NCBI GenBank assembly: GCA_964350885.1
Contig: CAYGKV010000001.1
Span: forward strand, 68,891-132,890
Reading direction: 5' to 3'
Source of the DNA: an uncultured Candidatus Saccharibacteria bacterium
GTDB taxonomy: Bacteria > Patescibacteriota > Minisyncoccia > Phycocordibacterales > UBA2100
DNA length: 64,000 bases
Shown: piece after piece, positions 15,843-61,052 of the stretch
Layout: the number at the start of each line of letters is the position of its first letter
Position numbering within the stretch: position 1 is the first letter of the stretch
Notes under the pieces: generated by a model
The model's input: only the letters and a program-made list of their open reading frames with translations
What the model was told of the DNA's origin: nothing
Databases searched by the model: none
Program-made: the position numbers and the translations under genes

Positions 15843-16238
15843 ATGGTAAAAGACAAAGGATATACAGAAGGGATCGGCCGCCGCAAGACAGCGACCGCCC
15901 GCGTACGAATCACTGAGGCAAAGAGTGCCTCCATGGTCGTAAACGGCAAGACCGCCGAAGAATATTTCCCGCTCGCACAGATGGTCTCGACCGCTTTTTC
16001 TCCACTCAAAATTCTTGGCGCTTCGTATGCCGTCTCGGTAAAAGTGAACGGGGGAGGTCATAAGGCTCAGGCAGATGCCGTCCGGCACGGTCTTTCCCGC
16101 GCAATCATCGAGCTTGTGCCAGAGCAGCGCAAAGACCTCAAAGTTCGAGGATTTCTCAAGCGCGACCCGCGTGCAAAAGAACGCAAAAAGTTTGGTCTCA
16201 AAGCCGCGCGCCGCGCGCCGCAGTGGTCGAAGCGCTAG
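15843..16238 (+). CDS. rpsI: 30S ribosomal protein S9
   Basis: GRRKTATARV...GGGHKAQADAVRHGLSRAI...KKFGLKAARRAPQWSKR signature. Confidence 0.9.
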   Translation: MVKDKGYTEGIGRRKTATARVRITEAKSASMVVNGKTAEEYFPLAQMVSTAFSPLKILGASYAVSVKVNGGGHKAQADAVRHGLSRAIIELVPEQRKDLKVRGFLKRDPRAKERKKFGLKAARRAPQWSKR

Positions 16239-16270
16239 AAAAAGCAAACTGCTTTGCTTTTTCTAGCGCT
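16231..16270 (+). terminator. palindromic hairpin/terminator after rpsI
   Basis: AGCGCTAGAAAAAGCAAA-CTG-CTTTGCTTTTTCTAGCGCT perfect 40-nt palindrome. The inner hairpin is followed by T5. Overlaps the rpsI stop. Confidence 0.55.
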
Positions 16271-16396
16271 TCGACGGTCGGAGCGATGTTTCGCCAGTAG
16301 GCGAAACCGCGAGGCGGGGTCGCGACCGAGCCGTGCTGGCACGGCGAGAGTTGTGACGGAAACGCTAGGGTTGTTTTAAAAACTTTAAAATTTAAA

Positions 16397-25459: not shown

Positions 25460-26032
25460 ATGGGAAAGCTCCGCATTAACGCAAACACAGTTGTTTGCAT
25501 GAACGGGCTCGGGATGTTGCCTGGACCAGCAGAGGCGAGACACGTGGAGTCCGCCTACAGCTGCTTGAAAAGGCAGAGGATATGGGGGTTTTTGCGTTGG
25601 GTATTTCTATTTCTCGGTTTCTACCTACTCAGCGATGCCCCTGCCTTCCCCCTTGGAGGCGAGGAAGAAATTGCCCTCGAAACTTTAGGCGGTATTTTGT
25701 GCTTTCCGATCGCCCTTTTCTTTTTTTTCATGAAGGAAACGGCGGATGATCGTTTCGAAAACATGGAAGGAAGGCTGGGCCGAGACTTGGCCGACCTATA
25801 CGTGATTCTTGGGGTTGGACCCTTGGAACTACCCAAGACCCCGCTGAAAAAACAGCGGTCGAAAGCGGATGACGTTTTGCGCGAGGAGGCAGAGAGACTC
25901 TCAGTCCCTCAAGCGAACAGTCATGAGAACCAGGCGGCACGAAAAAGGTTCGGGAGGATTTTCGACCTGTTCAAAAGATTCGGACTTGTCGACGGCGACG
26001 AAGGCTGGGGTCCTTACTTCGTCAAGAGATGA
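25460..26032 (+). CDS. hypothetical 2-TM protein
   Basis: ATG ORF with two hydrophobic helices and a charged C-terminal half. Followed by a strong hairpin. Could alternatively overlap an ncRNA. Confidence 0.3.
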   Translation: MGKLRINANTVVCMNGLGMLPGPAEARHVESAYSCLKRQRIWGFLRWVFLFLGFYLLSDAPAFPLGGEEEIALETLGGILCFPIALFFFFMKETADDRFENMEGRLGRDLADLYVILGVGPLELPKTPLKKQRSKADDVLREEAERLSVPQANSHENQAARKRFGRIFDLFKRFGLVDGDEGWGPYFVKR

Positions 26033-26038
26033 TCTCGC

Positions 26039-26071
26039 GGCACCTCGGGGGTTAGAGCCCTCCGAGGTGCC
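26039..26071 (+). terminator. rho-independent terminator-like hairpin
   Basis: GGCACCTCGGGGG-ttagag-CCCTCCGAGGTGCC followed by GAAGTGTTTATAT. Confidence 0.5.
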
Positions 26072-26118
26072 GAAGTGTTTATATCCATACGAGCATTTTT
26101 CTGTTAAAATCTAGTGAC

Positions 26119-27054
26119 ATGCAGAAATTGTTGACGGGTCTTCAACCCTCCGGAAGCCTCCATATCGGGAACTATTTTGGCGTCTTGAGGCCTTTTGTAA
26201 ACATGTACCAAGAGTACGCGAGTCACCTCATGGTCGCCGATTATCATGCGCTTACCACGCTCAAAGACCCTGCACTTCTGCGGCAAAACATCCTCGACGT
26301 CGTGCGAGATTATGTGGCGGTGGGAGTAGATCCGAAAAAAGCGATTATCTTCCAACAATCCGACGTGCCCGCACATACGGAAATGACGTGGATTTTTAAT
26401 ACACTCATTACCATACCTTTTCTTGAGCTCGGCCACGCTTTCAAGGACAAAGAAGCGCGTGGGCTGGTAGCCAACGTCGGACTCTTCGACTATCCGGTAC
26501 TCATGGCGGCTGACATACTGCTCTATGACACCGATGTCGTACCCGTGGGCCAAGATCAGAAGCAGCACATCGAATACGCCCGTGAAATCGCCGAAAAATT
26601 CAACGCCGCGTATGGAGAGACGTTTGTCTTGCCGAAAGAGCAGATAAGCAAGGACATCGCCGTAGTGCCAGGTACGGATGGCAAGAAGATGAGCAAGAGC
26701 TACGGTAACACAATCCCGCTCTTCGGAATGAAAGATGAAATTCAAAAGGCCGTCATGAGTATCGTTACCGATTCGAAAGCTGAGAGCCCGGAAAATGTCT
26801 ACAATATCCACAAATTTTTCCGCTCCGGAGATTCGCTCGCAAATCTCTACAAAGAGAATAAGGGGAAGTATAAAGCGCTCAAAGATGCCTTGGTAGAAGA
26901 TATCGATGCCGTGGTCACACCTATGCGCGAGAAACGTGCAAATATTTCCGACGCTGATGTAAAGAGTATCCTGAAAGATGGGGGGGAGCGGGCACGCGCA
27001 GAAGCAGACGCAAAGATTACAATTGTCCGAGCGAAAATCGGTGTAACAATCTGA
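26119..27054 (+). CDS. trpS: tryptophanyl-tRNA synthetase
   Basis: LTGLQPSGSLHIGNY (HIGH-like) and KMSKS motifs. 311 aa. Confidence 0.9.
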   Translation: MQKLLTGLQPSGSLHIGNYFGVLRPFVNMYQEYASHLMVADYHALTTLKDPALLRQNILDVVRDYVAVGVDPKKAIIFQQSDVPAHTEMTWIFNTLITIPFLELGHAFKDKEARGLVANVGLFDYPVLMAADILLYDTDVVPVGQDQKQHIEYAREIAEKFNAAYGETFVLPKEQISKDIAVVPGTDGKKMSKSYGNTIPLFGMKDEIQKAVMSIVTDSKAESPENVYNIHKFFRSGDSLANLYKENKGKYKALKDALVEDIDAVVTPMREKRANISDADVKSILKDGGERARAEADAKITIVRAKIGVTI

Positions 27055-27056
27055 AT

Positions 27057-28388
27057 ATGGAACGCACCTTCATTCGAGATTTGAACAGCCGCATCGGAGA
27101 ATCTGTCCTCATCAAGGGTTGGGTCTCCGTACGACGTGATCAAGGCAAGATGGTCTTTTTTGATTTCCGTGACATGACAGGCACGGTACAGGGTGTCGTC
27201 CTTCCCAAAAGTGCCGCGATCGATAGTGCGAAAGAGGCGACACGAGAGAGTGCAATTTCGGCCACGGGCATTATCAACAAGCGACCAGACAAAAATATTG
27301 TTTCCGATAAACAAAACGGGGATATCGAACTCCAAGTAGAAATCATGGAAATCCTAAGCCAGGCGCAAGCTCTTCCTTTTGATCTCGACGCGGAATTGCA
27401 TCTAGAAACTCATCTCGATAATTTGCCGCTCACGCTCCGCACCGAGCGCAGCCGCGATATATTTACCATGCAAGCGAGCATTCTAGAGGCGTACCGCGCA
27501 TCATTAAAATCCCAAGGTTTTACAGAATTTGAGGCACCTGCCCTTGTAGGAGGAGATGCAGAAGGTGGCGCTGCTGCATTCAAAGTCGAATACTTCAAAG
27601 ACACCGTCGCGTATCTCGCGACGAGCCCGCAATTCTACAAACAGATCATGGTAGGCCCATTTGAACGCGCATTCACCGTTGCAAAAATATTTCGCGCCGA
27701 AAAAAGCGCTACGACGCGACACTTGAGCGAGGCGACGTGCCTGGATTTCGAGATGGGATTTATCGAGAACGAACGCGAGCCGATGAAAGTACTGGAGCAA
27801 GCGGTTCGCGACACCCTAAGTGCGGTTTCAGAAATGCACCCCGACATCTTTGGGCGCTTCAATACATCCGTGCCACTCATACCCGCAGAAATACCCATTC
27901 TCACCTTGGCAGAAGCGCACCAGACGTTGGGCGTACCATCGGAGCCCGATATGACGCCCGAACACGAGCGAAATATCTGCGAGTGGGCGAAGAAAGAGAA
28001 GGGATCGGATTTTGTGTTCATCACGCGCTTTCCCACTTCCAAGCGCGCATTTTACACATATGAAGATCCTGCTGAAGCTCCTTTTTCTCGTGGATTTGAC
28101 CTTCTGTTCCGCGGCCTCGAAATCAACAGCGGCGCACAACGCATACACGATTACGATACACTGGTCGCGCGAATACGAGAGCGCGGACTGGACCCGGAGA
28201 AATTCTCCTTCTACCTACAAGCATTCAAATACGGTATGCCGCCGCACGGAGGATCTTCAACCGGCCTCGAACGCTTCACCGCTCGCATGTTGGAAATTCC
28301 AAACGTAAAAGAAGCGACATCCTTCCCGCGCGACATGACCCGGATCGACAACCGCCTTTCCGATATGGCAGAACCAGAACAAGCATGA
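27057..28388 (+). CDS. class IIb aminoacyl-tRNA synthetase, archaeal/eukaryotic-type AspRS (AsnRS not excluded)
   Basis: N-terminal OB anticodon-binding domain, FRAE motif 2 region, GGSSTGLERF motif 3. 443 aa. Confidence 0.8.
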   Translation: MERTFIRDLNSRIGESVLIKGWVSVRRDQGKMVFFDFRDMTGTVQGVVLPKSAAIDSAKEATRESAISATGIINKRPDKNIVSDKQNGDIELQVEIMEILSQAQALPFDLDAELHLETHLDNLPLTLRTERSRDIFTMQASILEAYRASLKSQGFTEFEAPALVGGDAEGGAAAFKVEYFKDTVAYLATSPQFYKQIMVGPFERAFTVAKIFRAEKSATTRHLSEATCLDFEMGFIENEREPMKVLEQAVRDTLSAVSEMHPDIFGRFNTSVPLIPAEIPILTLAEAHQTLGVPSEPDMTPEHERNICEWAKKEKGSDFVFITRFPTSKRAFYTYEDPAEAPFSRGFDLLFRGLEINSGAQRIHDYDTLVARIRERGLDPEKFSFYLQAFKYGMPPHGGSSTGLERFTARMLEIPNVKEATSFPRDMTRIDNRLSDMAEPEQA

Positions 28389-29113
28389 GTGAAAAATTCG
28401 AAGTGGCAACACCGGCATTTGAGGGCCCCTTGGAGGCGCTCCTCAACATGATCGAGGCGCGGAAGATGTCTGTCTCGGATATTTCTCTCGTGGAAGTCAC
28501 CGATGCGTATCTCGCGTACGTAGAGAAATTGCCCGAACTCCCGCTCGGCGAGACTGCGCAGTTCATCCTGGTCGCTTCAACACTTCTCCTCATTAAATCT
28601 CGTGCGCTGCTTCCGACTCTGGAATTATCTGAAGACGAGCGCGAGAGCGTGGAAGAGCTTGAACGCCGCCTTGCGCGCTACGCGCTCTACCGCAAAGCTG
28701 CAAAGCTCTTGCGCGGGCGATGGGACAAAGCGCCGCTCTTTCTTGCGCGTCGCGCGCCGCTCCGCGCCTCTGTGTTCAGCCCCGCAGACGCGAGTGTCAC
28801 TCTCATAGCGGAAGCGGCAGCACGACTCGTACGCATCCTACCCAAACCAGAAGCGCTCGCGAAAGCTGCCGTTGCCCCAGTCTTGGCACTCGAAGATGTG
28901 ATCTCACTGTTGAAGACGCGTCTCACAACGGCATTTAAAGCTCGGTTCAGCGAACTTACCAAATCCCGAGGTCGCCACGAAGTGATCGTCTACTTTCTCG
29001 CAATGCTCGAGCTCGTCCGCTCCGGCTCGGCAAGCGTATCGCAGGAAAAATTGTTTGAAGACATCACGATCGAGGTAGAAAATATCGGGGGCGCTCCTCG
29101 CTATGGCACGTAA
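28385..29113 (+). CDS. scpA: segregation and condensation protein A
   Basis: FEGPLEALLNMIEARKMSVSDISLVEVTDAYLAY N-terminal signature. Confidence 0.8.
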   Translation: MSEKFEVATPAFEGPLEALLNMIEARKMSVSDISLVEVTDAYLAYVEKLPELPLGETAQFILVASTLLLIKSRALLPTLELSEDERESVEELERRLARYALYRKAAKLLRGRWDKAPLFLARRAPLRASVFSPADASVTLIAEAAARLVRILPKPEALAKAAVAPVLALEDVISLLKTRLTTAFKARFSELTKSRGRHEVIVYFLAMLELVRSGSASVSQEKLFEDITIEVENIGGAPRYGT

Positions 29114-29121
29114 GTAACCAT

Positions 29122-29691
29122 ATGACTACCGACCTCTCATCAAAAGCAGAAGCATTCCTTTTTAGCGAAGGAGGTTCGCTCACGCTTCGCAAACTCGCGC
29201 AACTTCTCGAAACCAACGAGGCCGAATTGCGTCAAGCACTCAAAGAGCTTTCGGATCGACGCGCAAACAGTGGACTTGCGGTTATCGTATCGGACACCGA
29301 GGTATCTCTCGCCGTCGCCCCCATGATCTCGCCCGCAATCAAGACCGCGTATGCGCGAGAGCTGGGGAATTCTATTGGGGATGCGGGGCTCGAGGTTCTC
29401 GCGATAATTTTGTATCACGGACCATCGACCCGCTCGAAGATCGATTACATTCGCGGCGTAAATACCAGCTCTACGATCCGGACGCTCCTCAGTCGCGGAC
29501 TTTTGGAACGCACGGGAAATCCTGATGATGGCCGCGAATACATCTACCGCGCGACCGTCGAATTACTCTCGCACCTCGGTATACGAAATTCCGATGAGCT
29601 TCCCGATCGAGAATCGATTGCAGCAGAGTTGGCTGCATTCGAAGCAACAGAACAGACTCCCGGCAATACATATGGAAATGAAGCTGCCTGA
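29122..29691 (+). CDS. scpB: segregation and condensation protein B
   Basis: Tandem winged-helix ScpB pattern (EAFLFSEGGSLTL...LEVLAIILYHGPSTRSKIDYIRGV). Confidence 0.8.
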   Translation: MTTDLSSKAEAFLFSEGGSLTLRKLAQLLETNEAELRQALKELSDRRANSGLAVIVSDTEVSLAVAPMISPAIKTAYARELGNSIGDAGLEVLAIILYHGPSTRSKIDYIRGVNTSSTIRTLLSRGLLERTGNPDDGREYIYRATVELLSHLGIRNSDELPDRESIAAELAAFEATEQTPGNTYGNEAA

Positions 29692-30658
29692 AAATTCGCC
29701 TTCATACAGGGTGGAAAAACCGCAGGTATCGGAGCGGTTTTGGGGTATCCTCAGTCTTGCTCTTATTTTCTTTGCGGGTGCTGTCTTTTCAATCTCGTAT
29801 TTTACTGGCACTATTCGCTATCCTATCCCACACGTAGCGGCAGCGGCGGCAATCGCGGATCCGTTTCTCGACATCTCGCTCACTGCGAAAAGTGTCTTGG
29901 TGTTGGACCTCGCGACGAATCAAGTACTATATGCTCGACATCCCGACGTGCAGCTTCCCCTTGCCTCGCTCACTAAAGTACCCCTCGCGCTCGTCGTTTC
30001 AGAAGCCTTAGCACCCAATTCGATCATCACGATCGAACCTCACGACACGCCTGACGGCGCTCCCATTCGCCTCCCCGCAGGGACTCAAGTGCGCGCGCAG
30101 GATCTTCTTGATTTCATGCTTGTCGCATCTTCCAACGAGGGCTCCGAGCTCTTGGCCGACGCAGCAGAGATTGGCCTACGCCGCGCGTACCCAGAAGCTG
30201 ACCAAGATAATGCAACGCTCTGGCGTATGAACAACCTCGCAACACACCTAGGGTTAAAGCACACCTACTTCCGGAATATCCACGGGCTCGATATGAGCGC
30301 TACGCAGGCAGGCGCATATGGATCCGCGCGCGATGTGGCTCGCTTGTTTGCGTATGTGACAACGAACGCCCCACACATCTTCGAGAGAACCTCGAGAGAA
30401 ACGATCTCGATCAACACGCTGGATGGAAAAAATATCACCGCCACAAATACCGATCAAGCGCTCTCCGCAATCCCCGGCCTTATTTTGGGCAAGACCGGAT
30501 TCACTGACTTGGCAGGAGGCAATCTCGCAATCGTTTTTGAGGTTGGGCCACTCCACCCAATCGTCGCCGTCGTCCTTCAATCGACGCAGGAAGGTCGTTT
30601 CGAGGACATGAAAAAACTTGTTGATGCGACCCTCTCCTCCATGGCGGAGGACAGGTGA
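29672..30658 (+). CDS. D-alanyl-D-alanine carboxypeptidase (serine peptidase S11, PBP5-like)
   Basis: N-terminal TM anchor, SLTK (SxxK) active-site motif, SNE-like (SSNEGSE) motif. Start taken at ATG 29672, overlapping the scpB end. Confidence 0.7.
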   Translation: MEMKLPENSPSYRVEKPQVSERFWGILSLALIFFAGAVFSISYFTGTIRYPIPHVAAAAAIADPFLDISLTAKSVLVLDLATNQVLYARHPDVQLPLASLTKVPLALVVSEALAPNSIITIEPHDTPDGAPIRLPAGTQVRAQDLLDFMLVASSNEGSELLADAAEIGLRRAYPEADQDNATLWRMNNLATHLGLKHTYFRNIHGLDMSATQAGAYGSARDVARLFAYVTTNAPHIFERTSRETISINTLDGKNITATNTDQALSAIPGLILGKTGFTDLAGGNLAIVFEVGPLHPIVAVVLQSTQEGRFEDMKKLVDATLSSMAEDR

Positions 30659-30683
30659 ACACGCCGTAGTAGAATAGAATCGT

Positions 30684-31760
30684 ATGCTTTCATCGATCGT
30701 TCGTATCCTCATCCCGGCGGGCGTTGCTTTTTTGATAGGCATTGCGAGCACTCCAATGCTCACGCATTACCTCTATAAATACAAAGCGTGGAAAAAGCGC
30801 CCAGGGAAGCTCACGTTCGATGGCAACACTGCTCACGAATTCAATCGCCTCCACAGCCTGAATGAAGTGCGCGTCCCGCGTATGGGCGGCATCGTCATCT
30901 GGGGAAGCGTGGTCCTGACGATCCTGGGCATAGCACTCGCTGCTGCGGTATACCCAAATACCACCATGACCAGCTTGGATTTCTTGAGTCGAAACCAAAC
31001 GTGGTTGCCGCTTGCGGCGCTCTTGGTCGGAGCTCTCGTCGGGTTCATCGACGACATCATGGTCATTCGCCCGGAGGCCGTGGGATTACAATTGCGATAC
31101 CGGCTGTATATCGTCATTACACTTTCCTCTTTCATTGGCTGGTGGTTCTGGGCGAAATTGGACGTAACAACTGTCAATATTCCATTTCTCTATCCGTTGG
31201 AAATCGGATGGCTCATCGTCCCGCTTTTTGTCCTTGTCTCACTCGCACTCTATGCCTCAGGAGTGATCGACGGTATTGATGGACTTTCCGGCGGTGTCTT
31301 TGCTTCGATTTTCGCCTCGTACACAATCATCGCATTCGCACAAAATCAGGTTGATTTGGCGGCATTTACCGCGTGCGTGGTTGGTGGCATCCTCGCGTTT
31401 CTATGGTTCAACATTCCCCCGGCGCGTTTCTACATGAGCGACACCGGCACCATGGGTCTCACGTTGGCCGTGGGTACCGTCGCTTTTATGACCGACAGCC
31501 TGGGCGGGGGAGTCGGGATCAGTGTGCTCCCTGTGATTGGCGCACTTCTCGTCATAACGGTACTCTCCGACATCGCGCAAGTCCTATCGAAGAGATTCTT
31601 GAAACGAAAACTCCTCCGAATTGCACCTCTCCACCACCATTTTGAGGCTATAGGTTGGCCGGGATACAAGATCGTCATGCGCTATTGGGTGCTTTCAATC
31701 GTCTTTGCATTCGCGGGAGTTATCATCGCGTTATCTGCGACGGGGACAGGCCTGGAGTAG
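30684..31760 (+). CDS. mraY: phospho-N-acetylmuramoyl-pentapeptide transferase
   Basis: IDDIMVI, DGIDGL and APLHHHFE signatures. 10 TM. Confidence 0.9.
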   Translation: MLSSIVRILIPAGVAFLIGIASTPMLTHYLYKYKAWKKRPGKLTFDGNTAHEFNRLHSLNEVRVPRMGGIVIWGSVVLTILGIALAAAVYPNTTMTSLDFLSRNQTWLPLAALLVGALVGFIDDIMVIRPEAVGLQLRYRLYIVITLSSFIGWWFWAKLDVTTVNIPFLYPLEIGWLIVPLFVLVSLALYASGVIDGIDGLSGGVFASIFASYTIIAFAQNQVDLAAFTACVVGGILAFLWFNIPPARFYMSDTGTMGLTLAVGTVAFMTDSLGGGVGISVLPVIGALLVITVLSDIAQVLSKRFLKRKLLRIAPLHHHFEAIGWPGYKIVMRYWVLSIVFAFAGVIIALSATGTGLE

Positions 31761-31786
31761 TTTTTCAGGTGTTACTATAAGCACCC

Positions 31787-32887
31787 ATGCGTCACAGCAA
31801 AATCGACAAACCTCTGTTGTTTCTTTTGGTGGTTCTCATATTCGGAGGGTTTTTGATTTTTTCTTCCGCGGCATTTGGATTGCTCGCACGCGGACAAAAC
31901 GGCATGTTGTCAGTCGCTTTCAATCACCTGGTGCTTGGGATCGGGCTTGGCGTGCTATGTCTCACCGTACTTGCGATGATAGATTACCGGCAATGGCGAT
32001 ATTTTGCACCGTATTTGTTTGCGGCGACACTGGTAGCGACCGCCCTTGTGTTTGTCCCGCAGATAGGTTTTTCGCACGGTGGCGGCACTCGATGGCTCGA
32101 TATATTTGGCCTGTCTGTCCAGCCATCCGAAGCGGTGAAAATAACATCCATTATGTTTGCATCCGCATTCTTTGGGGCAGTTCGCGGGCGTGCAGAATCA
32201 ATCATGTGGGGTCTTGGAGGATTTTTTGCCATTATCGCGATTCCTGCGATTCTTCTTTTTCTCCAACCCGACATCGGGACATTGAGCATTATCGCTCTCT
32301 CCACATTCGTCGTGTATGTTGCGGCTGGGGCACGGTGGCGGGACATAGGGATAGCAATCGTGATCGCGCTCATTTGTTTTGCGAACATTCTCTATCTCAA
32401 GCCACACGCTCGAGATCGTGTCGTTACGTTTATCAACCCTTCAGCAAATAGCCAGGCCTCTGGGTATCAAATTCGGCAATCGTTGATCGCGATCGGTTCG
32501 GGCGAATTCTTGGGTCGAGGCTTTGGACAAGGGATACAGAAGTTCACCTATCTGCCTGAGCCGATGGGGGATTCCATATTCGCCGTTGCAGCAGAAGAGC
32601 TTGGGTTTGTGGGGTCCGTCATTATCATCGCGGTATTTCTAGGGCTCGCACTTCGTGGATTCGGCATTGCGACCCAAGCGCCAGATCTTTTTGGTGGCTT
32701 ACTTGCTGTCGGAATATCAACGTATCTTGTAGGCGAGGCATTTATCAACATTGCCGCCATGCTCGGCGTGGCACCCCTCACAGGAGTGCCGCTCACCTTT
32801 ATGAGTCAAGGAGGGAGTGCGATGCTCGTTTCCTTAGCGAGCGCCGGCATACTCCTCAACATCTCCCGCCACCGCCGTGCGTCCTGA
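31787..32887 (+). CDS. ftsW: SEDS-family peptidoglycan glycosyltransferase FtsW/RodA
   Basis: Polytopic SEDS protein between mraY and murG. GGSAMLVSLASAGILLNIS C-terminal signature. Confidence 0.8.
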   Translation: MRHSKIDKPLLFLLVVLIFGGFLIFSSAAFGLLARGQNGMLSVAFNHLVLGIGLGVLCLTVLAMIDYRQWRYFAPYLFAATLVATALVFVPQIGFSHGGGTRWLDIFGLSVQPSEAVKITSIMFASAFFGAVRGRAESIMWGLGGFFAIIAIPAILLFLQPDIGTLSIIALSTFVVYVAAGARWRDIGIAIVIALICFANILYLKPHARDRVVTFINPSANSQASGYQIRQSLIAIGSGEFLGRGFGQGIQKFTYLPEPMGDSIFAVAAEELGFVGSVIIIAVFLGLALRGFGIATQAPDLFGGLLAVGISTYLVGEAFINIAAMLGVAPLTGVPLTFMSQGGSAMLVSLASAGILLNISRHRRAS

Positions 32888-32943
32888 AGGCAGGGGAGTC
32901 AACTTCGTGAAGCATTGAAGTGATGTTGTGATAAAATGCCCGA

Positions 32944-34086
32944 ATGCGTATAGTACTCGTTGGAGGGGGGAGTGGAGGACATTTTTATCCTCTTATCGCT
33001 GTTGTAGAAGCAATTGAAGATATCTGCAAAGAGCGAACTTTGGTAGAGCCTGAATTCCTCTATATTGGCCCACTCGCGTTTGATCCAGAAGCTCTTATTG
33101 TCCACAATATTGACTATATTCCAAGCAACGCAGGTCGTATACGACGATACCCCAGCATCCTCAACGTCCTCAGTGTTTTCGCGAATGGCATTGGTGTCAT
33201 ACGCTCAACACTCCAGCTTTTCAATATTTACCCAGATGTGGTTTTTTCAACGGGAGGGTTTGCTGCTTTCCCAACCCTTTTTGCCGCTCGGATCCTTCGC
33301 ATACCGGTCGTCATTTACGATGCAGACGCAGAGCCCGGGCGCGTATCCCTGTGGTCATCCAAATTTGCACGCTGGATCGCCCTCGCCCATCCGTTTGCCG
33401 CAGAGAAATTCCCGGAAAAAACGCGCGACAGAATTGCACGCGTGGGACATCCCATACGCAGAGAGATTATCGACCCCGCAAAAGAAGGGGGTATCGAATT
33501 TCTCAAACTCGATCCTGCAGTCCCGACAATTTTCATTATGGGCGGCTCTCAGGGCGCGCGCGCGATCAACGAGGTTGTCTTAGACGCACTTACTGAGCTC
33601 GTATCCGAATTCAACATCGTCCATCAGGTCGGCTCTGCAAACGTAAAGGAGGTGAGCGATATCGCTTCCGTTATTCTAAAAGACTCTCGTTTCGCGTCGC
33701 GATACAAGATTTTCAGCCTCTTGAACGCGCTTGCGCTGCGTATGACGGCAGGAATTAGCTCTCTTGTCGTAGCCCGGGCGGGATCGGGGACGATTTTTGA
33801 GGTCGCGAGCTGGGGCATTCCCGCCATTTTTATTCCCATTCCCAAAGACATCTCTCACGATCAGACAGAAAATGCATTCTCGTATGCGCGTAAAGACGCG
33901 GCAGTCGTCATCGAGCAACACAACCTTACTCCACATTTGCTGGTGGCAGAGATTCGACGCCTCATGGGCGACCAAAATGAGCGTGAAAAAATGGCGAACG
34001 CGGCTCGAGCATTTGCACAACCGGAAGCTGCGCGTAAAATCGCCACGGTCCTCCTCGAAATAGCCATATCTCACGAACCTGTCTAA
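32944..34086 (+). CDS. murG: UDP-N-acetylglucosamine--LipidI N-acetylglucosaminyltransferase
   Basis: LVGGGSGGHFYPLIAV N-terminal G-loop, GT-B fold. Confidence 0.85.
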   Translation: MRIVLVGGGSGGHFYPLIAVVEAIEDICKERTLVEPEFLYIGPLAFDPEALIVHNIDYIPSNAGRIRRYPSILNVLSVFANGIGVIRSTLQLFNIYPDVVFSTGGFAAFPTLFAARILRIPVVIYDADAEPGRVSLWSSKFARWIALAHPFAAEKFPEKTRDRIARVGHPIRREIIDPAKEGGIEFLKLDPAVPTIFIMGGSQGARAINEVVLDALTELVSEFNIVHQVGSANVKEVSDIASVILKDSRFASRYKIFSLLNALALRMTAGISSLVVARAGSGTIFEVASWGIPAIFIPIPKDISHDQTENAFSYARKDAAVVIEQHNLTPHLLVAEIRRLMGDQNEREKMANAARAFAQPEAARKIATVLLEIAISHEPV

Positions 34087-34088
34087 AT

Positions 34089-35420
34089 ATGAACATCCGC
34101 GTACGATTTCCCCCGAGCCCCACCGGATACTGCCATGTGGGTACCGCGCGCATGGCGCTCATCAACTACATGTTTGCGCGCCGAAATAGCGGTTCCATTG
34201 TATTTCGTATCGAAGACACCGACAAAGAACGCAGCACCAAAGAATTCGAAGAAGATATCGTCGCGAGTGTCAAATGGCTAGGGCTCGATTGGGACGAATT
34301 CTACCGACAATCAGAACGAACCCAAGTGTATGTGCAAGCGCTTCAAACTCTGATCAACAAAGGCGCGGCATATATTTCCGAAGAAGAGAGTAGGAAGGAG
34401 CCGGGCAAGGTGGCCAAGGTCGTGCGACTCAAGAATCCAAACAAAATTGTCATGTTTCAAGACATCATCCGCGGTCCGATCACGTTTGATACGACCGAAC
34501 TCAAAGATTTTGTCATCGCCCGTGCGATTGACGATCCGCTCTACCATTTGTCAGTCGTTGTCGACGACGCCGAAATGGGCATCAGTCATGTGATTCGCGG
34601 TGAGGAGCACATATCGAATACTCCGCGACAAATCCTTGTCCAAGAAGCACTCGGGTATGCGCGCCCCCAATACGCGCACTATCCACTCTTCCTCGGCGCG
34701 GATAAATCCAAACTCTCGAAGAGAAAAGGCGATGTATCGATCCGTGACTACCGAGAAGATGGGTACTTGCCAGAAGCGATGGTGAATTTTATTGGCGTTT
34801 TGGGGTGGACCCCGCCGTCTGAAAGAGAAATATTGTCACTCGACGAAATGGTCGCGGAGTTTGACCTCAAAGATCTACATAAAAGTGGGGCTGTATTTGA
34901 TGTCGAGAAGCTCAATTGGTTCAACCACTCGTACCTCACGAGCTTCACTATAGAGGAGTACGAGCAGAAGCTCATGGATTTTGCAAAAACAAAAAAGATT
35001 ACCGAGATTCCTACACTTTCTCACATCTCTCGTGACCTCCAGCAACGCGCGCAAACACTAGAGGAAGCGCTCCAACTCTACGAAGGGGAATACAAAAACC
35101 TCGAAAACGAGCCTTCCTACGACAACGCTTTACTTCTGAAGGGGGCAAAAGTGGACGCAGAGACTGCGAGAAAACACCTCGTGTATACGTCTTCCCGATT
35201 GGGGGCGATACCCAATGACGCCATATTCGACGCTGAACGTGTAAAAAAAGAAATTTTCGATTACGCCACCGAGCAGGGGAGAGGTTCGGTGCTTTGGCCG
35301 CTGCGTGTTGCGCTGACCGGCAAAGAAAAATCTCCCGACCCTTTCACCGTTGCAGGATACCTCGGCAAAGAGCGGACCGTGCGACGCATACAAACCGCCA
35401 TTGAAAAGCTCGAGGTATGA
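34089..35420 (+). CDS. gltX: glutamyl-tRNA synthetase
   Basis: RFPPSPTGYCHVG (HIGH) and KLSKR (KMSKS) motifs. Confidence 0.85.
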   Translation: MNIRVRFPPSPTGYCHVGTARMALINYMFARRNSGSIVFRIEDTDKERSTKEFEEDIVASVKWLGLDWDEFYRQSERTQVYVQALQTLINKGAAYISEEESRKEPGKVAKVVRLKNPNKIVMFQDIIRGPITFDTTELKDFVIARAIDDPLYHLSVVVDDAEMGISHVIRGEEHISNTPRQILVQEALGYARPQYAHYPLFLGADKSKLSKRKGDVSIRDYREDGYLPEAMVNFIGVLGWTPPSEREILSLDEMVAEFDLKDLHKSGAVFDVEKLNWFNHSYLTSFTIEEYEQKLMDFAKTKKITEIPTLSHISRDLQQRAQTLEEALQLYEGEYKNLENEPSYDNALLLKGAKVDAETARKHLVYTSSRLGAIPNDAIFDAERVKKEIFDYATEQGRGSVLWPLRVALTGKEKSPDPFTVAGYLGKERTVRRIQTAIEKLEV

Positions 35421-36706
35421 GCGTTCGCTTTCCTTGGTTTCTTGTCCTCGCGGTCTCTCTATTTTTCGCATTTTCAGTACAGGGTGTTTTCGCCCAAGGA
35501 TCCAGCGCGGCGAGCTTACAAAAACAGATCGATGATCACAATGCGCAGATTGCGACTATCGACAAAGAGATCGCGCAATTTCAAGCCCAACTCGATACGA
35601 TAGGGACAAAAAAGAAAACGCTCCAAAATACTCTGTCGCAACTTGACGTTTCGATCAAAAAAACCACCGCCTCAATAAACGCAACGAAAAAAAAGATCAG
35701 CGCGACGCAATTGGAAATCCAACGGCTTGCCCTCGGGATCGCGAACAAACAGTTATCTATTGAAACCGGAGAAGCTGGTCTCGGCGAATCAATCCGCACG
35801 CTTCATGAGAAAGAAACACAACCGCTGGTGATCCGCTTACTCGGCGTTGAGGATATTTCTGATGCGTGGGTAGACATCGACAGCACTCAAACGCTCCAGA
35901 AAGCGATCGGGGAGCAAATTGATAGACTCTACGCCGAAAAACAATCTCTCACGGATACCAAAACAGCGACTGAAGAGAAGAAGGCGCAACTCGTGAAGCA
36001 GCAGGATACGCTCTTGGCACAGCAAGGCTCACTAAACGCCCAAAAAAAGGCCCAAAGCGAGCTTTTGACGCAGACGAAGTCACAAGAATCCACCTACCAA
36101 TCCATCCTTGCTCAGAAGCAGGCAGCAAAAGAGAGCTTTGAAGCCGTGCTCACGGACCTCAAATCGCAGTTCCAACGAGCCGTCAATCCGTCGGACATAC
36201 TTACCGCCGGCAAGGGGATACTGCGCTGGCCTGTCGACAAGGTCCGCGTTACGCAACCATTCGGCAACACCGCCTTCGCAGCCTCAGGCGCATACAACGG
36301 TAAGGGACACAACGGCATAGACATCGCCGCCCCCATCGGAACACCCCTCAAAGCCGCGCTCACGGGGACCGTCATCGGGACCGGCAACACCGACAACGTA
36401 CGCGGCTGCTACTCCTATGGAAAATGGGTGATGATAAAGCACGGCAATGGGCTCAACACTATGTACTCGCACCTCTCACAGATCAACGTCTCGACGGGAC
36501 AATCGGTGGCGACGGGACAGATAATCGGATACAGCGGGGAAACGGGCTACGCAACGGGCCCACACCTGCACTTTGGCGTCTATGTATCTTCTGCCACACA
36601 GATCGTAACGCTCGGCTCTGCCACCAACTCCAAAACGCCGTGCGCGAACGCCGTCATGCCCGTCGCTCCACTTCCGGCATATTTGAACCCGATGAATTAT
36701 TTGTAG
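35417..36706 (+). CDS. M23 family metallopeptidase with N-terminal coiled-coil (EnvC-like)
   Basis: Signal peptide, long coiled-coil, then LytM domain (HNGIDIAAP...HLHFGVY). Confidence 0.75.
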   Translation: MSVRFPWFLVLAVSLFFAFSVQGVFAQGSSAASLQKQIDDHNAQIATIDKEIAQFQAQLDTIGTKKKTLQNTLSQLDVSIKKTTASINATKKKISATQLEIQRLALGIANKQLSIETGEAGLGESIRTLHEKETQPLVIRLLGVEDISDAWVDIDSTQTLQKAIGEQIDRLYAEKQSLTDTKTATEEKKAQLVKQQDTLLAQQGSLNAQKKAQSELLTQTKSQESTYQSILAQKQAAKESFEAVLTDLKSQFQRAVNPSDILTAGKGILRWPVDKVRVTQPFGNTAFAASGAYNGKGHNGIDIAAPIGTPLKAALTGTVIGTGNTDNVRGCYSYGKWVMIKHGNGLNTMYSHLSQINVSTGQSVATGQIIGYSGETGYATGPHLHFGVYVSSATQIVTLGSATNSKTPCANAVMPVAPLPAYLNPMNYL

Positions 36707-37353
36707 CGCTTGCCGCTGCGATTCCATTCTGTCGTTTTCATCGCGCGTAATTCTACTTTTGCGCCACGTCGCAAAAGTTTCAGATTTTTCTGTGGAGCGA
36801 TAGGGAAGTGGGGAGACTCGTCGAGTGCGTCTACGAGCCACACGAGGTCTTCCCCTTCCGTAACCCATTTTTGAGGAGCGGATTGCGATAGATCATACGG
36901 CTTGGAATAAGCGCGAAGCGACTTTTTGCCATTCCATTCCAAGTATTCGTGAAAATACGACATCGCGAGCTCGCGCGGTGATTCGTATACCGGATCACGG
37001 TATCGCAATATCGAATGATTCGTTTTACTTATCGCACCCCAGCGTCCGAATTGTTTGAAAAGGGTAATGACATGATCTTCGTCGGTCGGCACCGTCTGGA
37101 AATCCATAAGAAGAGGCGGCTGACCATAATACGCCAAGGCTGCCGCCGCCAATAAGGCCCCCTCAAAGCAATGGGCGCTCTTTTCCTCGATAACTCGTCT
37201 CGGCGACATATATGTCTCCCCCTGGAGCTCAAAATTTATAGGTAGAGTATCGAGGTAATCCTGAATCTTTTGCGGGGTCGAAAGTTTTCGGAGAAGATCT
37301 CGTTCAAGGGGACGGAGGAGCGCCTTTAGAGCAGAAGGGTAGCTTTGACGCAT
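36697..37353 (-). CDS. hypothetical protein with transglutaminase-like Cys motif
   Basis: KSAHCFEGALLAAAALAYYGQP resembles the transglutaminase/papain-like core (C...H...D). Start uncertain: the ORF extends to 37458 (GTG/ATG); ATG at 37353 chosen. Convergently overlaps the M23 gene by 10 nt. Confidence 0.35.
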   Translation of the reverse strand: MRQSYPSALKALLRPLERDLLRKLSTPQKIQDYLDTLPINFELQGETYMSPRRVIEEKSAHCFEGALLAAAALAYYGQPPLLMDFQTVPTDEDHVITLFKQFGRWGAISKTNHSILRYRDPVYESPRELAMSYFHEYLEWNGKKSLRAYSKPYDLSQSAPQKWVTEGEDLVWLVDALDESPHFPIAPQKNLKLLRRGAKVELRAMKTTEWNRSGKRYK

Positions 37354-44164: not shown

Positions 44165-47053
44165 TCACTCTTCTACAACGAAATTGACGAGTCGTCCCGG
44201 TACAACAATAGTACGGAGAATTTTTTTGTCTTCTAAACGTGCTTTAACCGCCTCTTTCGCAGCTCTTTCTACCGCTACCTTATCTGCGTTCGCCGCAACG
44301 CTTGTTTCTCCTCTTGTCTTGCCATTGATTTGTATTGCAATCGTGACAATCGACTCCTTGAGAAGCGCCTGGTCAAACGTCGGCCACAGCTCTTTGTGAA
44401 TTGATTTTTTCTTCCCGCTCGCTGCCCACAAGTCTTCTGCCATATGCGGCGCAAAAGGAGCCAAGATTTTCAGAAATGTTTCCCACTGATTTTTTCCGAT
44501 GTTCTTCTCTTTTTCGATTGCATTTAAGAGGATCATGAGCTGACTGATTGCCGTATTGAATTTCAGGGCGGCAATGTCTTCACCTACTTTTTTGATGGTT
44601 TTATGCAAGAGTCTTTCCATGTCGGGATTTCGTAAATCCCGAATATCGGGATTTACGAAATCCCGACATCTCCACAGCCGCTCCAAAAAACGCCGCACCC
44701 CCACTACCCCATCCGGATTCCATGGATAGCTCGATACTTCATTGTAGGGCCCAATAAATGCCAAATACATGCGCACGGTATCCGAGCCAAGCTTCGCAAC
44801 GACCTCATCTGGATCAATCACGTTGCCCTTAGATTTCGACATCTTCTGCCCATCCGGCCCCATGATGAGAGAACGATTCATTCTCCGGGTATAGGGCTCT
44901 TTGTCTTTCAAAAATCCAAGATCCGACATCGCTTTCTGCCAAAAGCGACTGTACAAGACGTGCATGGTTGTGTGTTCCGCTCCTCCTGAATACAAATCCA
45001 CTGGCATCCATGCGGCAAGTTTCTTTGCGTCTGCAAATTTCTTTTTATTTTTTGGATCCGTATATCGCATGAAATACCACGAAGAATCGACAAAAGTATC
45101 GAGAGTGTCAGTTTCTCTTTCTGCTTTTCCGCCACACGACGGACACTTCACATTCACCCACTTCGTAGCTTTCGCAAGCGGAGATTTGCCGCTTCCTTCA
45201 GGTAGGTAATCTTTTACCTCGGGAAGTTTGACTGGCAAGTCTTTGTCTTGTACCGCAACGGGCCCACACGTGGGGCAGTGGACAATCGGTATGGGCACAC
45301 CCCAGTAGCGTTGACGCGAGACGATCCAATCGCGAAGTTTGTATGTTGTTTTGCGGCGACCAAAACGTTCGATGATTTTCGGTAACGCTTCGTCACTCAT
45401 AAGACCAGAAAACTCTCCGGAATTCACGAGTATCCCCTCCCCCGTGTACGTCGTGGAAATGTGGTGTATTCGCTTCCATCCGATGCGGATGTCATCTCGA
45501 TTGATGAAGCGGTCCATTGCGTCTTTCGAAAGCCAGCTCACATCGTGACGAGAGCGCTCGTGCTCTGCCACTTCTTCTTGAGAATCATCTTCAAGTTGGA
45601 AAAGAAGCGGTGTAAAATGGACAGATCGATTCTGCTTCCCCTCAACGCTAAAATATTTGCCGTGTATCGCTCCTCCAAGCTCGCGCACAAATCGCGCGTT
45701 ACGGTAGCCAGTTTCCTCGCGTATCTCTCGTTTTCCCGCAGCTATCGCATCTTCCCCTTCTTCTATTCCTCCTGACACGCACTCGTTCACGTTTGAGGGC
45801 TTGTAGGTCACCGCGAGGTACTTGTCCTCAGACCAATGCTTCACGTAGGCGAGAACCGAATTGCGCTCTGTATATGACTTATCAGTATGAACAGCATCGA
45901 GCCCCGTCTCCTTGATAATTAACGGTTCAATGACTTCAGTAATCGTGATGCCGTATTTTTTTGCAAACACCCCATCACGATCATCGTGTGCAGGCACACC
46001 CATTACAGCTCCCGTGCCGTAGTGGCCAAGTACATAATCCGCAACATAGACCGGTATTTCCTTGCCAGTTGCCGGGTTAATAGCTTTCACCCCCTTCAAT
46101 TCAATACCCGTCTTGTCCTTCTGGTCTGTCTGACGCTCAAGATCCGTCTTCTTTTTCGCCCCTTCTATATACTTCTCAACTTCTTCCCAATTTTGAATTA
46201 CACTTTTGCCTTTTGCCTTTTGCCTTTTGACTTCTTGTATCCATGGGTGCTCAGGGGCGAGCACGAGGTACGTGGCACCGTATAGCGTGTCGGCGCGGGT
46301 AGTAAAAACCGTAACAATATCGTTCGAAACGCCCCCTTTCTCGGATTTCATTACAAAATCAATCTCCGCACCTTCGGAGCGGCCGATCCAATTGCGTTGC
46401 GATTCTTTTATTTGCTCAGGCCAATCGAGGGCGTCCAAATCGTCGATGAGTCTGTCCGCATAATCGGTAATTTTGATATTCCATTGGAGCATTTGCCTTT
46501 GCACAACCTCAGTGCCACAACGTTCGCATTTCCCAAGAACGACCTGCTCATTCGCCAATACTGTCTTACAGGAAGGGCACCAATTGACTGCTGTTTCTTT
46601 GCGATATACCAGACCTTTTTTAAAAAACTGGAGGAAGAGCCACTGCGTCCATTTATAGTACGCGGGATCACAGGTAACGACTTCTCGCGACCAGTCGAAA
46701 GAAGTGCCCATCGAGCGTATCTGCTTCTTCATGAACTCAATATTCTTGAGCGTCCACACACGTGGATTGATCTTATTTTTTATGGCCGCATTTTCGGCCG
46801 GTAGTCCAAATGCATCAAATCCTATGGGATACAAGACATTTTTCCCTTGCATGCGCATTGCGCGAGCGAGGATGTCGGGCACTGCGAAGGCATACCAGTG
46901 CCCCACGTGCAAATTACCTGATGGATACGGGAACTCCACGAGGAGATACAAGTTTTCTTTGCCTTTTACGAAATCCCGAGTCTTGTAGAGATGATTTTTG
47001 TCCCAAACCTTCTGCCACTTTTTCTCTATTTTCCTATGGTCATATCCACGCAT
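44165..47053 (-). CDS. leuS: leucyl-tRNA synthetase carrying an internal Nudix-hydrolase domain
   Basis: PYPSGNLHVGH, editing-domain TTRADTLYGAT and VPAHDDRD, KMSKS. A Nudix domain with a perfect Nudix box (GGIEEGEDAIAAGKREIREETGY) lies at aa ~395-525, between the editing domain and the LVNSGEF segment. Confidence 0.9.
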   Translation of the reverse strand: MRGYDHRKIEKKWQKVWDKNHLYKTRDFVKGKENLYLLVEFPYPSGNLHVGHWYAFAVPDILARAMRMQGKNVLYPIGFDAFGLPAENAAIKNKINPRVWTLKNIEFMKKQIRSMGTSFDWSREVVTCDPAYYKWTQWLFLQFFKKGLVYRKETAVNWCPSCKTVLANEQVVLGKCERCGTEVVQRQMLQWNIKITDYADRLIDDLDALDWPEQIKESQRNWIGRSEGAEIDFVMKSEKGGVSNDIVTVFTTRADTLYGATYLVLAPEHPWIQEVKRQKAKGKSVIQNWEEVEKYIEGAKKKTDLERQTDQKDKTGIELKGVKAINPATGKEIPVYVADYVLGHYGTGAVMGVPAHDDRDGVFAKKYGITITEVIEPLIIKETGLDAVHTDKSYTERNSVLAYVKHWSEDKYLAVTYKPSNVNECVSGGIEEGEDAIAAGKREIREETGYRNARFVRELGGAIHGKYFSVEGKQNRSVHFTPLLFQLEDDSQEEVAEHERSRHDVSWLSKDAMDRFINRDDIRIGWKRIHHISTTYTGEGILVNSGEFSGLMSDEALPKIIERFGRRKTTYKLRDWIVSRQRYWGVPIPIVHCPTCGPVAVQDKDLPVKLPEVKDYLPEGSGKSPLAKATKWVNVKCPSCGGKAERETDTLDTFVDSSWYFMRYTDPKNKKKFADAKKLAAWMPVDLYSGGAEHTTMHVLYSRFWQKAMSDLGFLKDKEPYTRRMNRSLIMGPDGQKMSKSKGNVIDPDEVVAKLGSDTVRMYLAFIGPYNEVSSYPWNPDGVVGVRRFLERLWRCRDFVNPDIRDLRNPDMERLLHKTIKKVGEDIAALKFNTAISQLMILLNAIEKEKNIGKNQWETFLKILAPFAPHMAEDLWAASGKKKSIHKELWPTFDQALLKESIVTIAIQINGKTRGETSVAANADKVAVERAAKEAVKARLEDKKILRTIVVPGRLVNFVVEE
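44619..44669. repeat. inverted pair of the 24-nt palindromic repeat (ATGTCGGGATTTCGTAAATCCCGA-ata-reverse complement) inside leuS coding sequence
   Basis: 51-nt near-perfect palindrome. In frame it encodes DFVNPDIRDLRNPDM in LeuRS. Same unit at 52503-52528 and 60762-60789. Confidence 0.7.
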
Positions 47054-47096: not shown

Positions 47097-48080
47097 TTAG
47101 AAGTTTTTTTGCTTGGAGAATGGAGGGTATCGTTCTGGATCTATAGTGCGTTCAAAGCAAGTCTCGCCAGCGCCATGCTGCCATGTGGATTGTTCGAGGA
47201 TCATCCCCTTCTCGGATGTCATACCAATAGGTTCTGCAGGCATAGGCGCGATCACCGGACGCGAAACGCCCATTGAACTTGGTCGCGTCTCTGCATTGAA
47301 TGTCGCGCAGAGCTTGAAGGAGAGGCTGCCAGTTGTCTGGTACGTGTACATTTCACCAGTTTGTGGGTCGAGAGGAATAATGACACCGCTGATCGGATCC
47401 TGAAGTTCCCCCAGTGTCGCAGGTAACACCTCTTTCTGCTGCCAGTAATTGACGATCTGATACTGAATGTTCGTGAGATCGTTGACTTTCTGATCGTCGA
47501 AACGGTACAAGCGAATCTGATTGGGTGAACCCATAATGAAGAACCCCGTCGCGATAGACGCGAAGACGACAAGTCCTGCACCCCACCCGATCATGCGTGC
47601 TCGCTCTGGGTACTGAATCCAGTAACCCCAGATGTCCGCAAGAAAGTGGAGAAGGCCGGCTCCCGCGACAAGCACAACGACGAGAACTTTCAGAATGAAG
47701 CGCATCGTAATCTCACCACCCAAGAAGAAATTGATGAGCGTGATGAGGGCCCCAGCGACTGCCGCGCCGGCAATGAATACGGTGAGATACAGCACCCATC
47801 GGCGAATCCAGAGATCGCGTTTCTCCGGTGTCCGGACGATGTCTTTGCGGACAAGACGAATCAAAAGGAGGAATAACGGAAAAAGCACGATGAGCGCCGC
47901 CATTTCGTATCGAATACTCGAAGAGTACGGATCCACGTAATAGTTCAACACGTCGGGAAACGCGTAGTTAATGTACTCGAAAAGTAGGTTGATAAGAGCG
48001 AATATGCTGATATAGAGCGCAACCATCGCCCCTGCCCAGAGGAAAAAATCCTTTGGTGTTACTTTTAGTTTAGTATCCAT
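47097..48080 (-). CDS. hypothetical polytopic membrane protein
   Basis: About 6 TM helices in the N-terminal 200 aa, soluble C-terminal domain. No recognisable motif. Confidence 0.45.
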   Translation of the reverse strand: MDTKLKVTPKDFFLWAGAMVALYISIFALINLLFEYINYAFPDVLNYYVDPYSSSIRYEMAALIVLFPLFLLLIRLVRKDIVRTPEKRDLWIRRWVLYLTVFIAGAAVAGALITLINFFLGGEITMRFILKVLVVVLVAGAGLLHFLADIWGYWIQYPERARMIGWGAGLVVFASIATGFFIMGSPNQIRLYRFDDQKVNDLTNIQYQIVNYWQQKEVLPATLGELQDPISGVIIPLDPQTGEMYTYQTTGSLSFKLCATFNAETRPSSMGVSRPVIAPMPAEPIGMTSEKGMILEQSTWQHGAGETCFERTIDPERYPPFSKQKNF

Positions 48081-52502: not shown

Positions 52503-52528
52503 GAATGTCGGGATTTCGTAAATCCCGA
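52503..52528. repeat. palindromic repeat unit filling the atpD-atpC intergenic spacer
   Basis: GAATGTCGGGATTTCGTAAATCCCGA: 9-bp stem, 3-nt loop hairpin. Same unit inside leuS and ahcY. Confidence 0.7.
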
Positions 52529-52530
52529 TA

Positions 52531-54299
<1,769 letters not shown>

Positions 54300-59795: not shown

Positions 59796-61052
<1,257 letters not shown>

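Follow-up and report, generated by a model that had tools for sequence, protein, structure and literature searches.

A palindrome in the leuS gene of a Patescibacteria contig as a probable inverted doublet of a 27-nt REP-type hairpin

The gene for leucyl-tRNA synthetase (leuS, LeuRS) within 64,000 nt of contig CAYGKV010000001.1 (assembly GCA_964350885.1, positions 68,891 to 132,890), the whole of which is called the window here, contains a 51-nt palindrome at 44619-44669. This palindrome is probably a local inverted doublet of a 27-nt hairpin that comes from a system of the type formed by repetitive extragenic palindromes (REPs) and REP-associated tyrosine transposases (RAYTs), known as a 'REPtron', vertically inherited in Ca. 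Kaiserbacteria (Parcubacteria). The observations behind this reading are a family of repeats, covariation within the hairpin, linkage to a transposase gene, synteny of that gene, length neutrality of coding copies and independence from the direction of transcription. Loci from other genomes are referred to below by L numbers.

The repeat unit and its doublet in leuS

The consensus unit is AT(A/G)-TCGGGATTT-CGT-AAATCCCGA-(T/C)AT, 27 nt in length, with a 12-bp stem and a 3-nt loop. When 85 unique exact copies were oriented by their loop, conservation ended exactly at 27 nt. The ATR and YAT feet of the unit are complementary to each other, and its only asymmetric conserved part is the CGT loop (TCGTA). 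At the outer variable pair, 29 copies carry A-T, 14 carry G-C, 10 carry G.T and two carry A.C.

In leuS, two such units are inverted and overlap in a central ATA, giving ATGTCGGGATTTCGTAAATCCCGA-ATA-TCGGGATTTACGAAATCCCGACAT, with 24-nt arms that are 100% complementary and 3 nt apart. The left unit spans 44619-44645 (loop CGT at 44631-44633) and the right unit 44643-44669 (loop ACG at 44655-44657). The doublet as a whole (44619..44669, unstranded) covers codons 795-812 of the host gene, a 962-aa open reading frame (ORF) on the minus strand at 44165..47053 that was identified as LeuRS by Pfam, and is translated in frame as residues C796 to 812. It is located in the variable linker that joins the RFLERLW helix to the anticodon-binding domain, which begins with HKTIKKV. 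By computed folding, the doublet as single-stranded DNA forms a 24-bp hairpin of -28.7 kcal/mol (z = -12).

Perfect long palindromes can be produced by chimeric reads, so a fold-back chimera from assembly or amplification had to be considered as the origin of the 51 nt. We give this origin almost no credence. Two independent read-set assemblies (ERR3094293 and ERR3094294) contain the identical palindrome, which is therefore not an assembly artefact; the leuS reading frame is moreover intact across it, and similar doublets are present in other genes and genomes. Inverted or tandem pairs occur in valS (L016), tsaD (L009) and other genes (L049, L075), with a spacing of 2 nt in L016, 3 nt in the window and 4 nt in L049 and L075, and as a direct tandem in L009. 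At the leuS site of one relative, L039, there is only one unit. Because the spacing varies, both tandem and inverted forms exist and L039 has only the one leuS unit, the doublets look locally generated.

The LeuRS of the window also contains a NUDIX domain, inserted after the editing domain at residues 424-513 (Pfam E 2.3e-8), which is listed in 119 of its 120 best homologs as well. Most of these homologs are 1120-1150 aa long and have an extra alpha/beta-hydrolase domain that the 962-aa protein is without. Adjoining leuS is a gene for a DUF5671 protein (47097-48080, minus strand), a domain common in genomes of the Candidate Phyla Radiation (CPR), and L083 and L088 have the same neighbour.

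The 21-mer core of the unit, TCGGGATTTCGTAAATCCCGA, is repeated exactly at 52508-52528 and 60767-60787 of the window, where shuffles gave an expectation of 0 matches. The first of these belongs to a single intergenic unit, ATG-TCGGGATTT-CGT-AAATCCCGA-TAT (52505..52531, plus strand; hairpin -9.8 kcal/mol), which shares 1 nt, its last base, with the TAA stop of an ATP synthase beta-like gene (52531..53904, minus strand). An intrinsic terminator following this gene was rejected, as the unit lacks a T-run and a terminator-like site was not called there. The second belongs to a single unit at 60764..60790 (plus strand), in frame in codons 88-97 of ahcY (adenosylhomocysteinase, 418 aa; 59796..61052, minus strand) and length-neutral with respect to orthologs; L017 and L025 have the unit at the orthologous codons. 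In addition, a partial copy with 4 mismatches to the 21-mer lies near the 5' end of leuS, in the codons for TRDFVKG (46959..46979, minus strand), and includes a 15-nt exact match at 46965-46979. This protein segment reads T(P/R)D(K/S)(A/V)KG and is constant in length in the 101 of 120 LeuRS homologs where it could be located, and the partial copy may be either a native proto-site or a site that was partially converted. A search of the window for further hairpin families with a CGT/ACG loop yielded nothing besides this repeat.

A preliminary description of this DNA, made from the letters alone, had anticipated much of the above. It placed a palindrome in frame on the minus strand of leuS, let the same unit recur between genes near 52.5 kb and in frame in ahcY, and noted a degenerate half-copy near the leuS 5' end, all of which agrees with the 962-aa LeuRS frame, the exact 21-mers and the 15 matching nucleotides. 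Two details needed revision. The palindrome had been called near-perfect, whereas 24+3+24 nt is perfect, and the hairpin unit, correct as such, had been given as about 28 nt with arms of 9-11 bp in place of 27 nt.

The exact 21-mer has 37 occurrences, found in 26 stretches from 14 species-representative genomes; nearly all of these genomes are labelled Ca. Kaiserbacteria, Parcubacteria or Patescibacteria. It is also found in 51 metagenome contigs. A search of viral contigs for the exact 21-mer returned no match, and a phage origin of the repeat was excluded on this ground. Some assemblies that carry the repeat are labelled 'Candidatus Saccharibacteria' (L083, which is CAYIJV010000005.1, and L011, L026 and L021), and L083 has the closest LeuRS homolog (73% identity) to the Kaiserbacteria-like protein of the window. 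The label of these four may be a misclassification.

The transposase gene of related genomes and its hairpins

At several loci in related genomes, two to four copies of the repeat surround one ORF of 216-225 aa. The ORFs L018:4950-5600, L007:2835-3482, L004:2294-2941 and L023:6799-7458 match Pfam Y1_Tnp (IS200-like), and their sole NCBIfam match is REP_Tyr_transpos, the REP-associated tyrosine transposase (E 4e-9 to 7e-8). In an alignment of 53 sequences the NHYHLL (HUH) and Y-x-H-x-NP tyrosine motifs are invariant. An AlphaFold model has pLDDT values of 80-90 in its core, and the best PDB matches found with Foldseek are ISHp608 TnpA (2a6m), the E. coli RAYT with a REP hairpin (4er8) and ISDra2 TnpA, with a probability of 1.0 and a target TM of 0.5-0.63; the top matches include 2a6m, 4er8, 2xo6, 2xm3 and 2vju. 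A phmmer search against the PDB gave no direct sequence match to a solved structure. Judged by motifs and predicted fold, the gene is a distant RAYT/IS200-like homolog.

With a threshold of E<=1e-5 the transposase has 2675 homologs, of which those that bear a name come from Kaiserbacteria/Parcubacteria. In 13 loci, which represent different species, the gene stands next to gap (GAPDH) in divergent orientation, a constant neighbourhood that indicates vertical inheritance at one locus. L018 is exceptional in that a gap homolog was not found in its 8-kb locus. A second, distant transposase paralog (31-33% identity) is present in L033:1567-2190 and L034:7720-8277.

The hairpins occupy regular positions around and within this gene. 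Upstream of the ATG a hairpin is found in 15/15 loci, its 3' end 3-22 nt before the start codon (typically ~10), and its loop is CGT in 12 of them. Downstream of the stop codon, 13 of the 15 loci have one or two hairpins, the first with an ACG loop in nine. A further copy lies inside the ORF itself in 13/15 loci, at nt ~131-186 (codons ~44-62) and in either loop orientation, between the N-terminal strand and the HUH motif; in relatives that share the exact 21-mer it spans nt 132-158. Examples are L023:7304-7324, L004:2428-2448, L018:5084-5104, L078:10132-10158 and L079:10164-10186, as well as copies in L085 and L086. In the protein, the loop signature [DE][FLI][VR] is found in nearly all of the 114 readable sequences among the 120 best transposase homologs.

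Six stem variants were distinguished, namely TCGGGATTT, which is the type in the window, TCGGGAGAT, GTTCGACCT, GAACGACTT, GATGGAGAT and GATTGACAT. In most loci one variant occupies the upstream, internal and downstream positions of the lineage's own transposase gene. The exception is L056 (L056:3596-4341), in which GTTCGACCT stands upstream of and inside the gene and the window's TCGGGATTT immediately downstream. The loop is always CGT/ACG, and the T-CGT-A and GA..TC positions are invariant across the six variants. In an alignment of 11 sequences, two-sided compensatory changes affect 9 of the 12 stem pairs, and 97.7% of cells pair, a percentage that is partly by construction; slid registers pair at only 28-42%, and none of 500 shuffles reached the covariation score.

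Two different stem variants can coexist in one genome, as seen in L056:3596-4341, L010:1629-2228 and L032. At one purL site (L020:4519-4569, L037:10754-10804 and L028:3835-3890) one species has a doublet of the window's variant, a second has a doublet of the imperfect variant TCGGGAG(T/C)T...ATCTCCCGA, and a third has one of each.

A palindromic motif that is found throughout a lineage, in coding regions and sometimes as inverted pairs after genes, could also be a DNA uptake signal or a parS-like segregation site. DNA uptake sequences (DUS/USS) occur about once per kb, as one fixed motif across a clade. Here the density is 100-1000 times lower, at no more than 8 exact copies per representative genome, and the stems differ between closely related lineages and track the transposase gene. 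The conserved asymmetric loop is moreover unexpected for a site bound symmetrically as a duplex, and we consider this explanation highly improbable.

Coding copies, their reading frames and their lengths

Five of the six reading frames of the unit are open (RDFVNPD, SGFRKSR, RDLRNPD, SGFTKSR and GIYEIP), and the sixth, which contains TAA, is used by none of the intragenic copies. If a copy 30 nt or more within a stop-free frame of 200 aa or longer is counted as intragenic, 54 of 95 unique copies (~57%) qualify; so do 72% of random positions in the same loci. The host genes include ahcY, tsaD, pheT, purL, valS/ileS-like genes and leuS, together with a gene of beta-lactamase fold and a nuclease. 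With respect to transcription, the loop is oriented along the sense strand in 25 copies and the antisense strand in 29, and its orientation is sometimes flipped between orthologous sites. Because loop orientation is random and the frame with the stop is never used, the repeat behaves as a DNA feature under the constraint of open ORFs rather than as an oriented RNA signal.

These counts bear directly on the alternative of an mRNA hairpin that acts in stability, processing or control of translation; the preliminary description, too, had raised an RNA hairpin, with a regulatory, structural or recombination role. In favour of this alternative are the stability of the hairpin, a copy adjoining a stop codon and, at the foot of the stem, a G.T wobble that is commoner than A.C (10 vs 2). 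The 25:29 ratio, the loops that flip at orthologous sites, the missing T-run and the placement of copies around a gene for a DNA transposase all speak against it, and we hold an RNA function to be very unlikely. A known RNA family was excluded, the window being without an Rfam match at gathering thresholds.

The unit in ahcY is not an insertion. Its segment can be aligned gaplessly with a solved AhcY structure, and its length is the same, with no extra residues, in each of the 120 closest homologs. The commonest REP-less sequence among relatives reads LVKEYEIPTF at this segment, and 7/9 codons of the unit match it. TACGAAATCCCGAC is already present in a REP-less ortholog, whose DNA is GTG AAA GAA TAC GAA ATC CCG ACG where the window has GTC GGG ATT TAC GAA ATC CCG ACA; by this comparison the difference is confined to the 5' arm, the codons of the loop and 3' arm being native. 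Synonymous differences start right at the edges of the element. AhcY sequences with the unit are scattered among nearest neighbours without it, and in L089 the ahcY copy is decaying and shows three changes, located in its loop and upper stem. GIYDIP in AhcY had been taken for a different, compensated stem variant, which the DNA of L089 showed to be wrong.

In leuS, the segment from RFLERVW to HKTIKKVGED is 35 aa long in most Kaiserbacteria homologs where it can be located and 39 aa in the window. Measured to HKTIKK, it is 31 aa both in the closest homolog L083, which is REP-less, and in L039 with its single unit, against 35 in the window. By these lengths, 27 nt were replaced by the first unit, and the second made a net addition of 12 nt, or 4 codons. 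The tsaD C-terminus and the L043 gene are gapless as well, with no added residues, and the valS doublet changes the length by one residue at most; some doublets situated in variable linkers contribute an extra 4-13 residues. Over the 27 nt of the element, REP-less orthologs at the length-neutral sites share 41-67% identity with it, chance identity being assumed to be ~25%, and the flanks are 59-86% identical. A simple in-frame insertion was therefore rejected, on the strength of the solved AhcY, the 120 AhcY and 120 LeuRS homologs and the codon-level DNA comparisons.

The same lengths decide most of the case of the Rickettsia palindromic elements (RPEs), to which the preliminary description had likened the repeat. 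RPEs measure about 100-150 bp and add tens of residues to their host proteins, and we know of no enzyme for them. An orphan selfish palindrome of this kind, which inserts in frame and contributes a peptide module without a dedicated enzyme, would be consistent with in-frame copies in essential genes and with doublets that encode 17 aa. The unit here is only 27 nt, single copies add no residues in ahcY, leuS (L039), the tsaD C-terminus and the L043 gene, and the repeat is tied closely to the Y1 transposase gene, both physically and by co-evolution. The length tests have already largely refuted an RPE-like origin, to which we attach hardly any probability. What stands of the preliminary description is a dispersed family of small palindromes tolerated in frame within ORFs, with open frames used and the stop frame avoided. 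Its mobile element tolerated in frame was right in spirit, and in related genomes the repeat is linked to a transposase; 'inserted' and 'RPE-like' are unsupported, the ahcY and single leuS copies being length-neutral. It had also named two observations that would tell against an inserted element, a motif with few occurrences and the same peptide in orthologs; what was found goes half of that way, with a low copy number and an ahcY peptide that is largely a conserved protein segment.

Several copies are found at orthologous codons in different species, in the C-terminus of tsaD (L003, L009, L024, L026, L077), in pheT (L014, L019, L027) and also in purL. In such cases 26-27 nt are exactly conserved between species whose flanks are only ~70-77% identical. 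This degree of conservation would fit a reading in which the units are selected cis sites, for the transposase as a domesticated binding or nicking protein or for another factor, kept at fixed positions in the service of a cellular role such as DNA topology, replication or repair, or regulation, with new sites recruited from similar sequences. RAYTs have been described as domesticated (PMC5581495). The low copy number, the hairpin kept inside the transposase ORF (13/15 loci), the length-neutral copies that arise at sites already similar, and the vertical inheritance of the transposase gene in one locus fit such host sites too. Against them stand the patchy presence of the unit, as in AhcY sequences whose nearest neighbours lack it, the absence from L089 of the copy downstream of atpD and the decay of its ahcY copy, and the local tandem or inverted duplications and multiple variants per genome, which look like the dynamics of a repeat. 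Selected host sites are a possible explanation, though one that we do not favour; they are compatible with a REP/RAYT-type origin, and may be considered its main rival or its complement.

Elsewhere in the window, long palindromes unrelated in sequence to the repeat lie between convergent ORFs at 16226-16275 (23-nt arms, 100%) and 5957-6004 (24-nt arms, 92%) and are probably bidirectional terminators. The GC skew changes sign near 26-30 kb, and gene orientation converges near 36.7 kb, with plus-strand genes to the left and minus-strand genes to the right. The region ~26000-37000 may be a replication terminus.

Relation to known repeats and a possible copying route

REPs are 20-50-nt palindromes that follow a conserved tetranucleotide, usually GTAG, and are present in hundreds of mostly intergenic copies; TnpA_REP recognises them as single strands (PMC8266576). 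The tetranucleotide tag, at one end of the palindrome, is GTAG or CGTC (PMC8266576, PMC3733652). RAYTs are single-copy and vertically inherited (PMC5581495), and other phyla have been reported to carry intragenic REPs, which are often dimers and in some cases lie in tRNA-synthetase genes (PMC3733652). The system described here resembles these in having a short dispersed stem-loop repeat that flanks, in inverted orientation, a vertically inherited Y1 HUH homolog at a single locus. The hairpin co-varies with the enzyme, doublets are common, and the enzyme has the HUH and catalytic Tyr motifs and a predicted IS200/TnpA_REP fold. It differs in its host, a CPR bacterium, and in the length of the enzyme, 216-225 aa compared with 165 for E. 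coli TnpA_REP. There are ~1-10 copies in place of hundreds and ~57% of them are intragenic, in contrast to the extragenic bias of REPs; single coding copies are length-neutral, and a copy lies within the transposase ORF.

REPINs consist of two inverted REPs with a spacer and move as a unit (Bertels and Rainey, PMC3116915). The doublets here likewise consist of two inverted units that fold into one long hairpin (-28.7 kcal/mol in leuS) and are associated with a RAYT-like gene. However, their units abut or overlap with a spacing of 2, 3 or 4 nt that depends on the site, direct tandems exist, and L039 has a single unit. Among the RPEs are palindromic insertions of greater length, in frame within ORFs (PMC3733652); the likeness to them lies in palindromic repeats in frame inside genes that remain functional, and the difference in a 27-nt unit that mostly replaces codons and has a cognate transposase-like gene. 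With the IS200/IS605 family the enzyme shares its fold (2a6m, 2xm3, 2vju), and the repeat would share subterminal hairpins recognised on single-stranded DNA. In contrast to that family, the left and right ends are not distinct, tnpB is absent, and the gene does not occur in multiple identical copies and is fixed beside gap across species. The small dispersed repeats (SDRs) of Nostoc, reportedly 21-27 nt in the account of Elhai et al. 2008, form hairpins with compensatory changes and occur as nested or adjacent copies. By description they are thus similar in their very small size (~24-27 nt), their compensated hairpins and their adjacent copies, and differ in that SDRs sit in heptamer repeats or HIP1 sites and that we know of no enzyme identified for them.

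Several points weigh against assigning the leuS doublet to a REP/RAYT-type system. The copy number is low, with 1-8 exact copies per representative genome and just one in a complete 859-kb chromosome. The repeat has no GTAG/CGTC tag, the logo of 85 copies showing no conservation outside -3/+23. The transposase ORFs score 23-24 bits with Pfam Y1_Tnp, at the cut-off of 23, and 32-37 bits with NCBIfam NF047646, far under the curated RAYT cut-off of 80, and the Foldseek E values are only ~1e-3, on a model with a mean pLDDT of 63. The 64-kb window contains no transposase homolog, so that the link to the transposase rests on related genomes. A clean presence/absence polymorphism of +27 nt, which would show mobility directly, was not found; the exact cross-species conservation in ahcY, tsaD, pheT and purL fits a selected binding site equally well. 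Finally, the hairpins used for covariation came from a palindrome search. In view of this circularity the independent evidence is the lineage-specific stem that recurs at three fixed positions per locus, together with the loop signature in the protein. With these points taken into account, we still consider a REP/RAYT-type origin of the doublet probable.

From the patterns set out above we infer the catalysis by the enzyme, the route of copying and any benefit to the host. The enzyme would use the T-CGT-A loop region and the GA..TC positions of the stem to recognise the hairpin once this is extruded on single-stranded DNA. Cleavage and strand transfer by the enzyme, or repair that it provokes, would copy and homogenise the units. 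Coding copies would not arrive as clean insertions and would instead overwrite stretches that already resemble the unit, most likely by short-patch ectopic conversion or by hairpin-templated template switching. Units could afterwards duplicate locally in inverted or tandem form, and a single leuS unit such as that of L039 would become the 51-nt palindrome. Intragenic copies would survive because the unit, at 27 nt, amounts to nine codons, only one of its six frames contains a stop, and the encoded peptide falls in surface linkers or is tolerated. The argument for overwriting of proto-sites is the length-neutral, similarity-dependent pattern of the coding copies. A stronger form of this proposal, which we advance only tentatively, is that units spread by homology-seeded, length-neutral conversion of ~27 nt of partly similar DNA, repeated in separate lineages at the same codons (ahcY, leuS, tsaD, purL), and not by cut-or-copy-and-paste. 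The copy inside the transposase ORF might then be part of the mechanism, for instance as an autoregulatory site or as a donor template.

The mechanisms of REP dissemination have been called 'poorly understood' (PMC8266576), and a literature search found, in the library covered, no paper that joins RAYT or REPIN with Patescibacteria terms. To our knowledge, the ORF-internal transposase copy (13/15 loci), the length-neutral coding copies and the host phylum are new. The repeat explains odd motifs of 9 or 17 residues that recur in unrelated Kaiserbacteria proteins (RDFVNPD, RDLRNPD, SGF[RT]KSR and GIYEIP). Its natural variation identifies putative determinants of recognition in the TCGTA loop region and the GA..TC positions. 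REP/RAYT biology would be extended to the Candidate Phyla Radiation, with its tiny genomes and almost no intergenic space. Gapless orthologs of essential genes with and without the unit, stem variants that track the enzyme and the ORF-internal copy are natural experiments, which together constrain the copying mechanism towards conversion in place and address the open questions of how REPs disseminate and why RAYTs are kept. If true, overwriting would give REP-type repeats a new way to disseminate, and a domesticated HUH enzyme could imprint its own site into essential genes.

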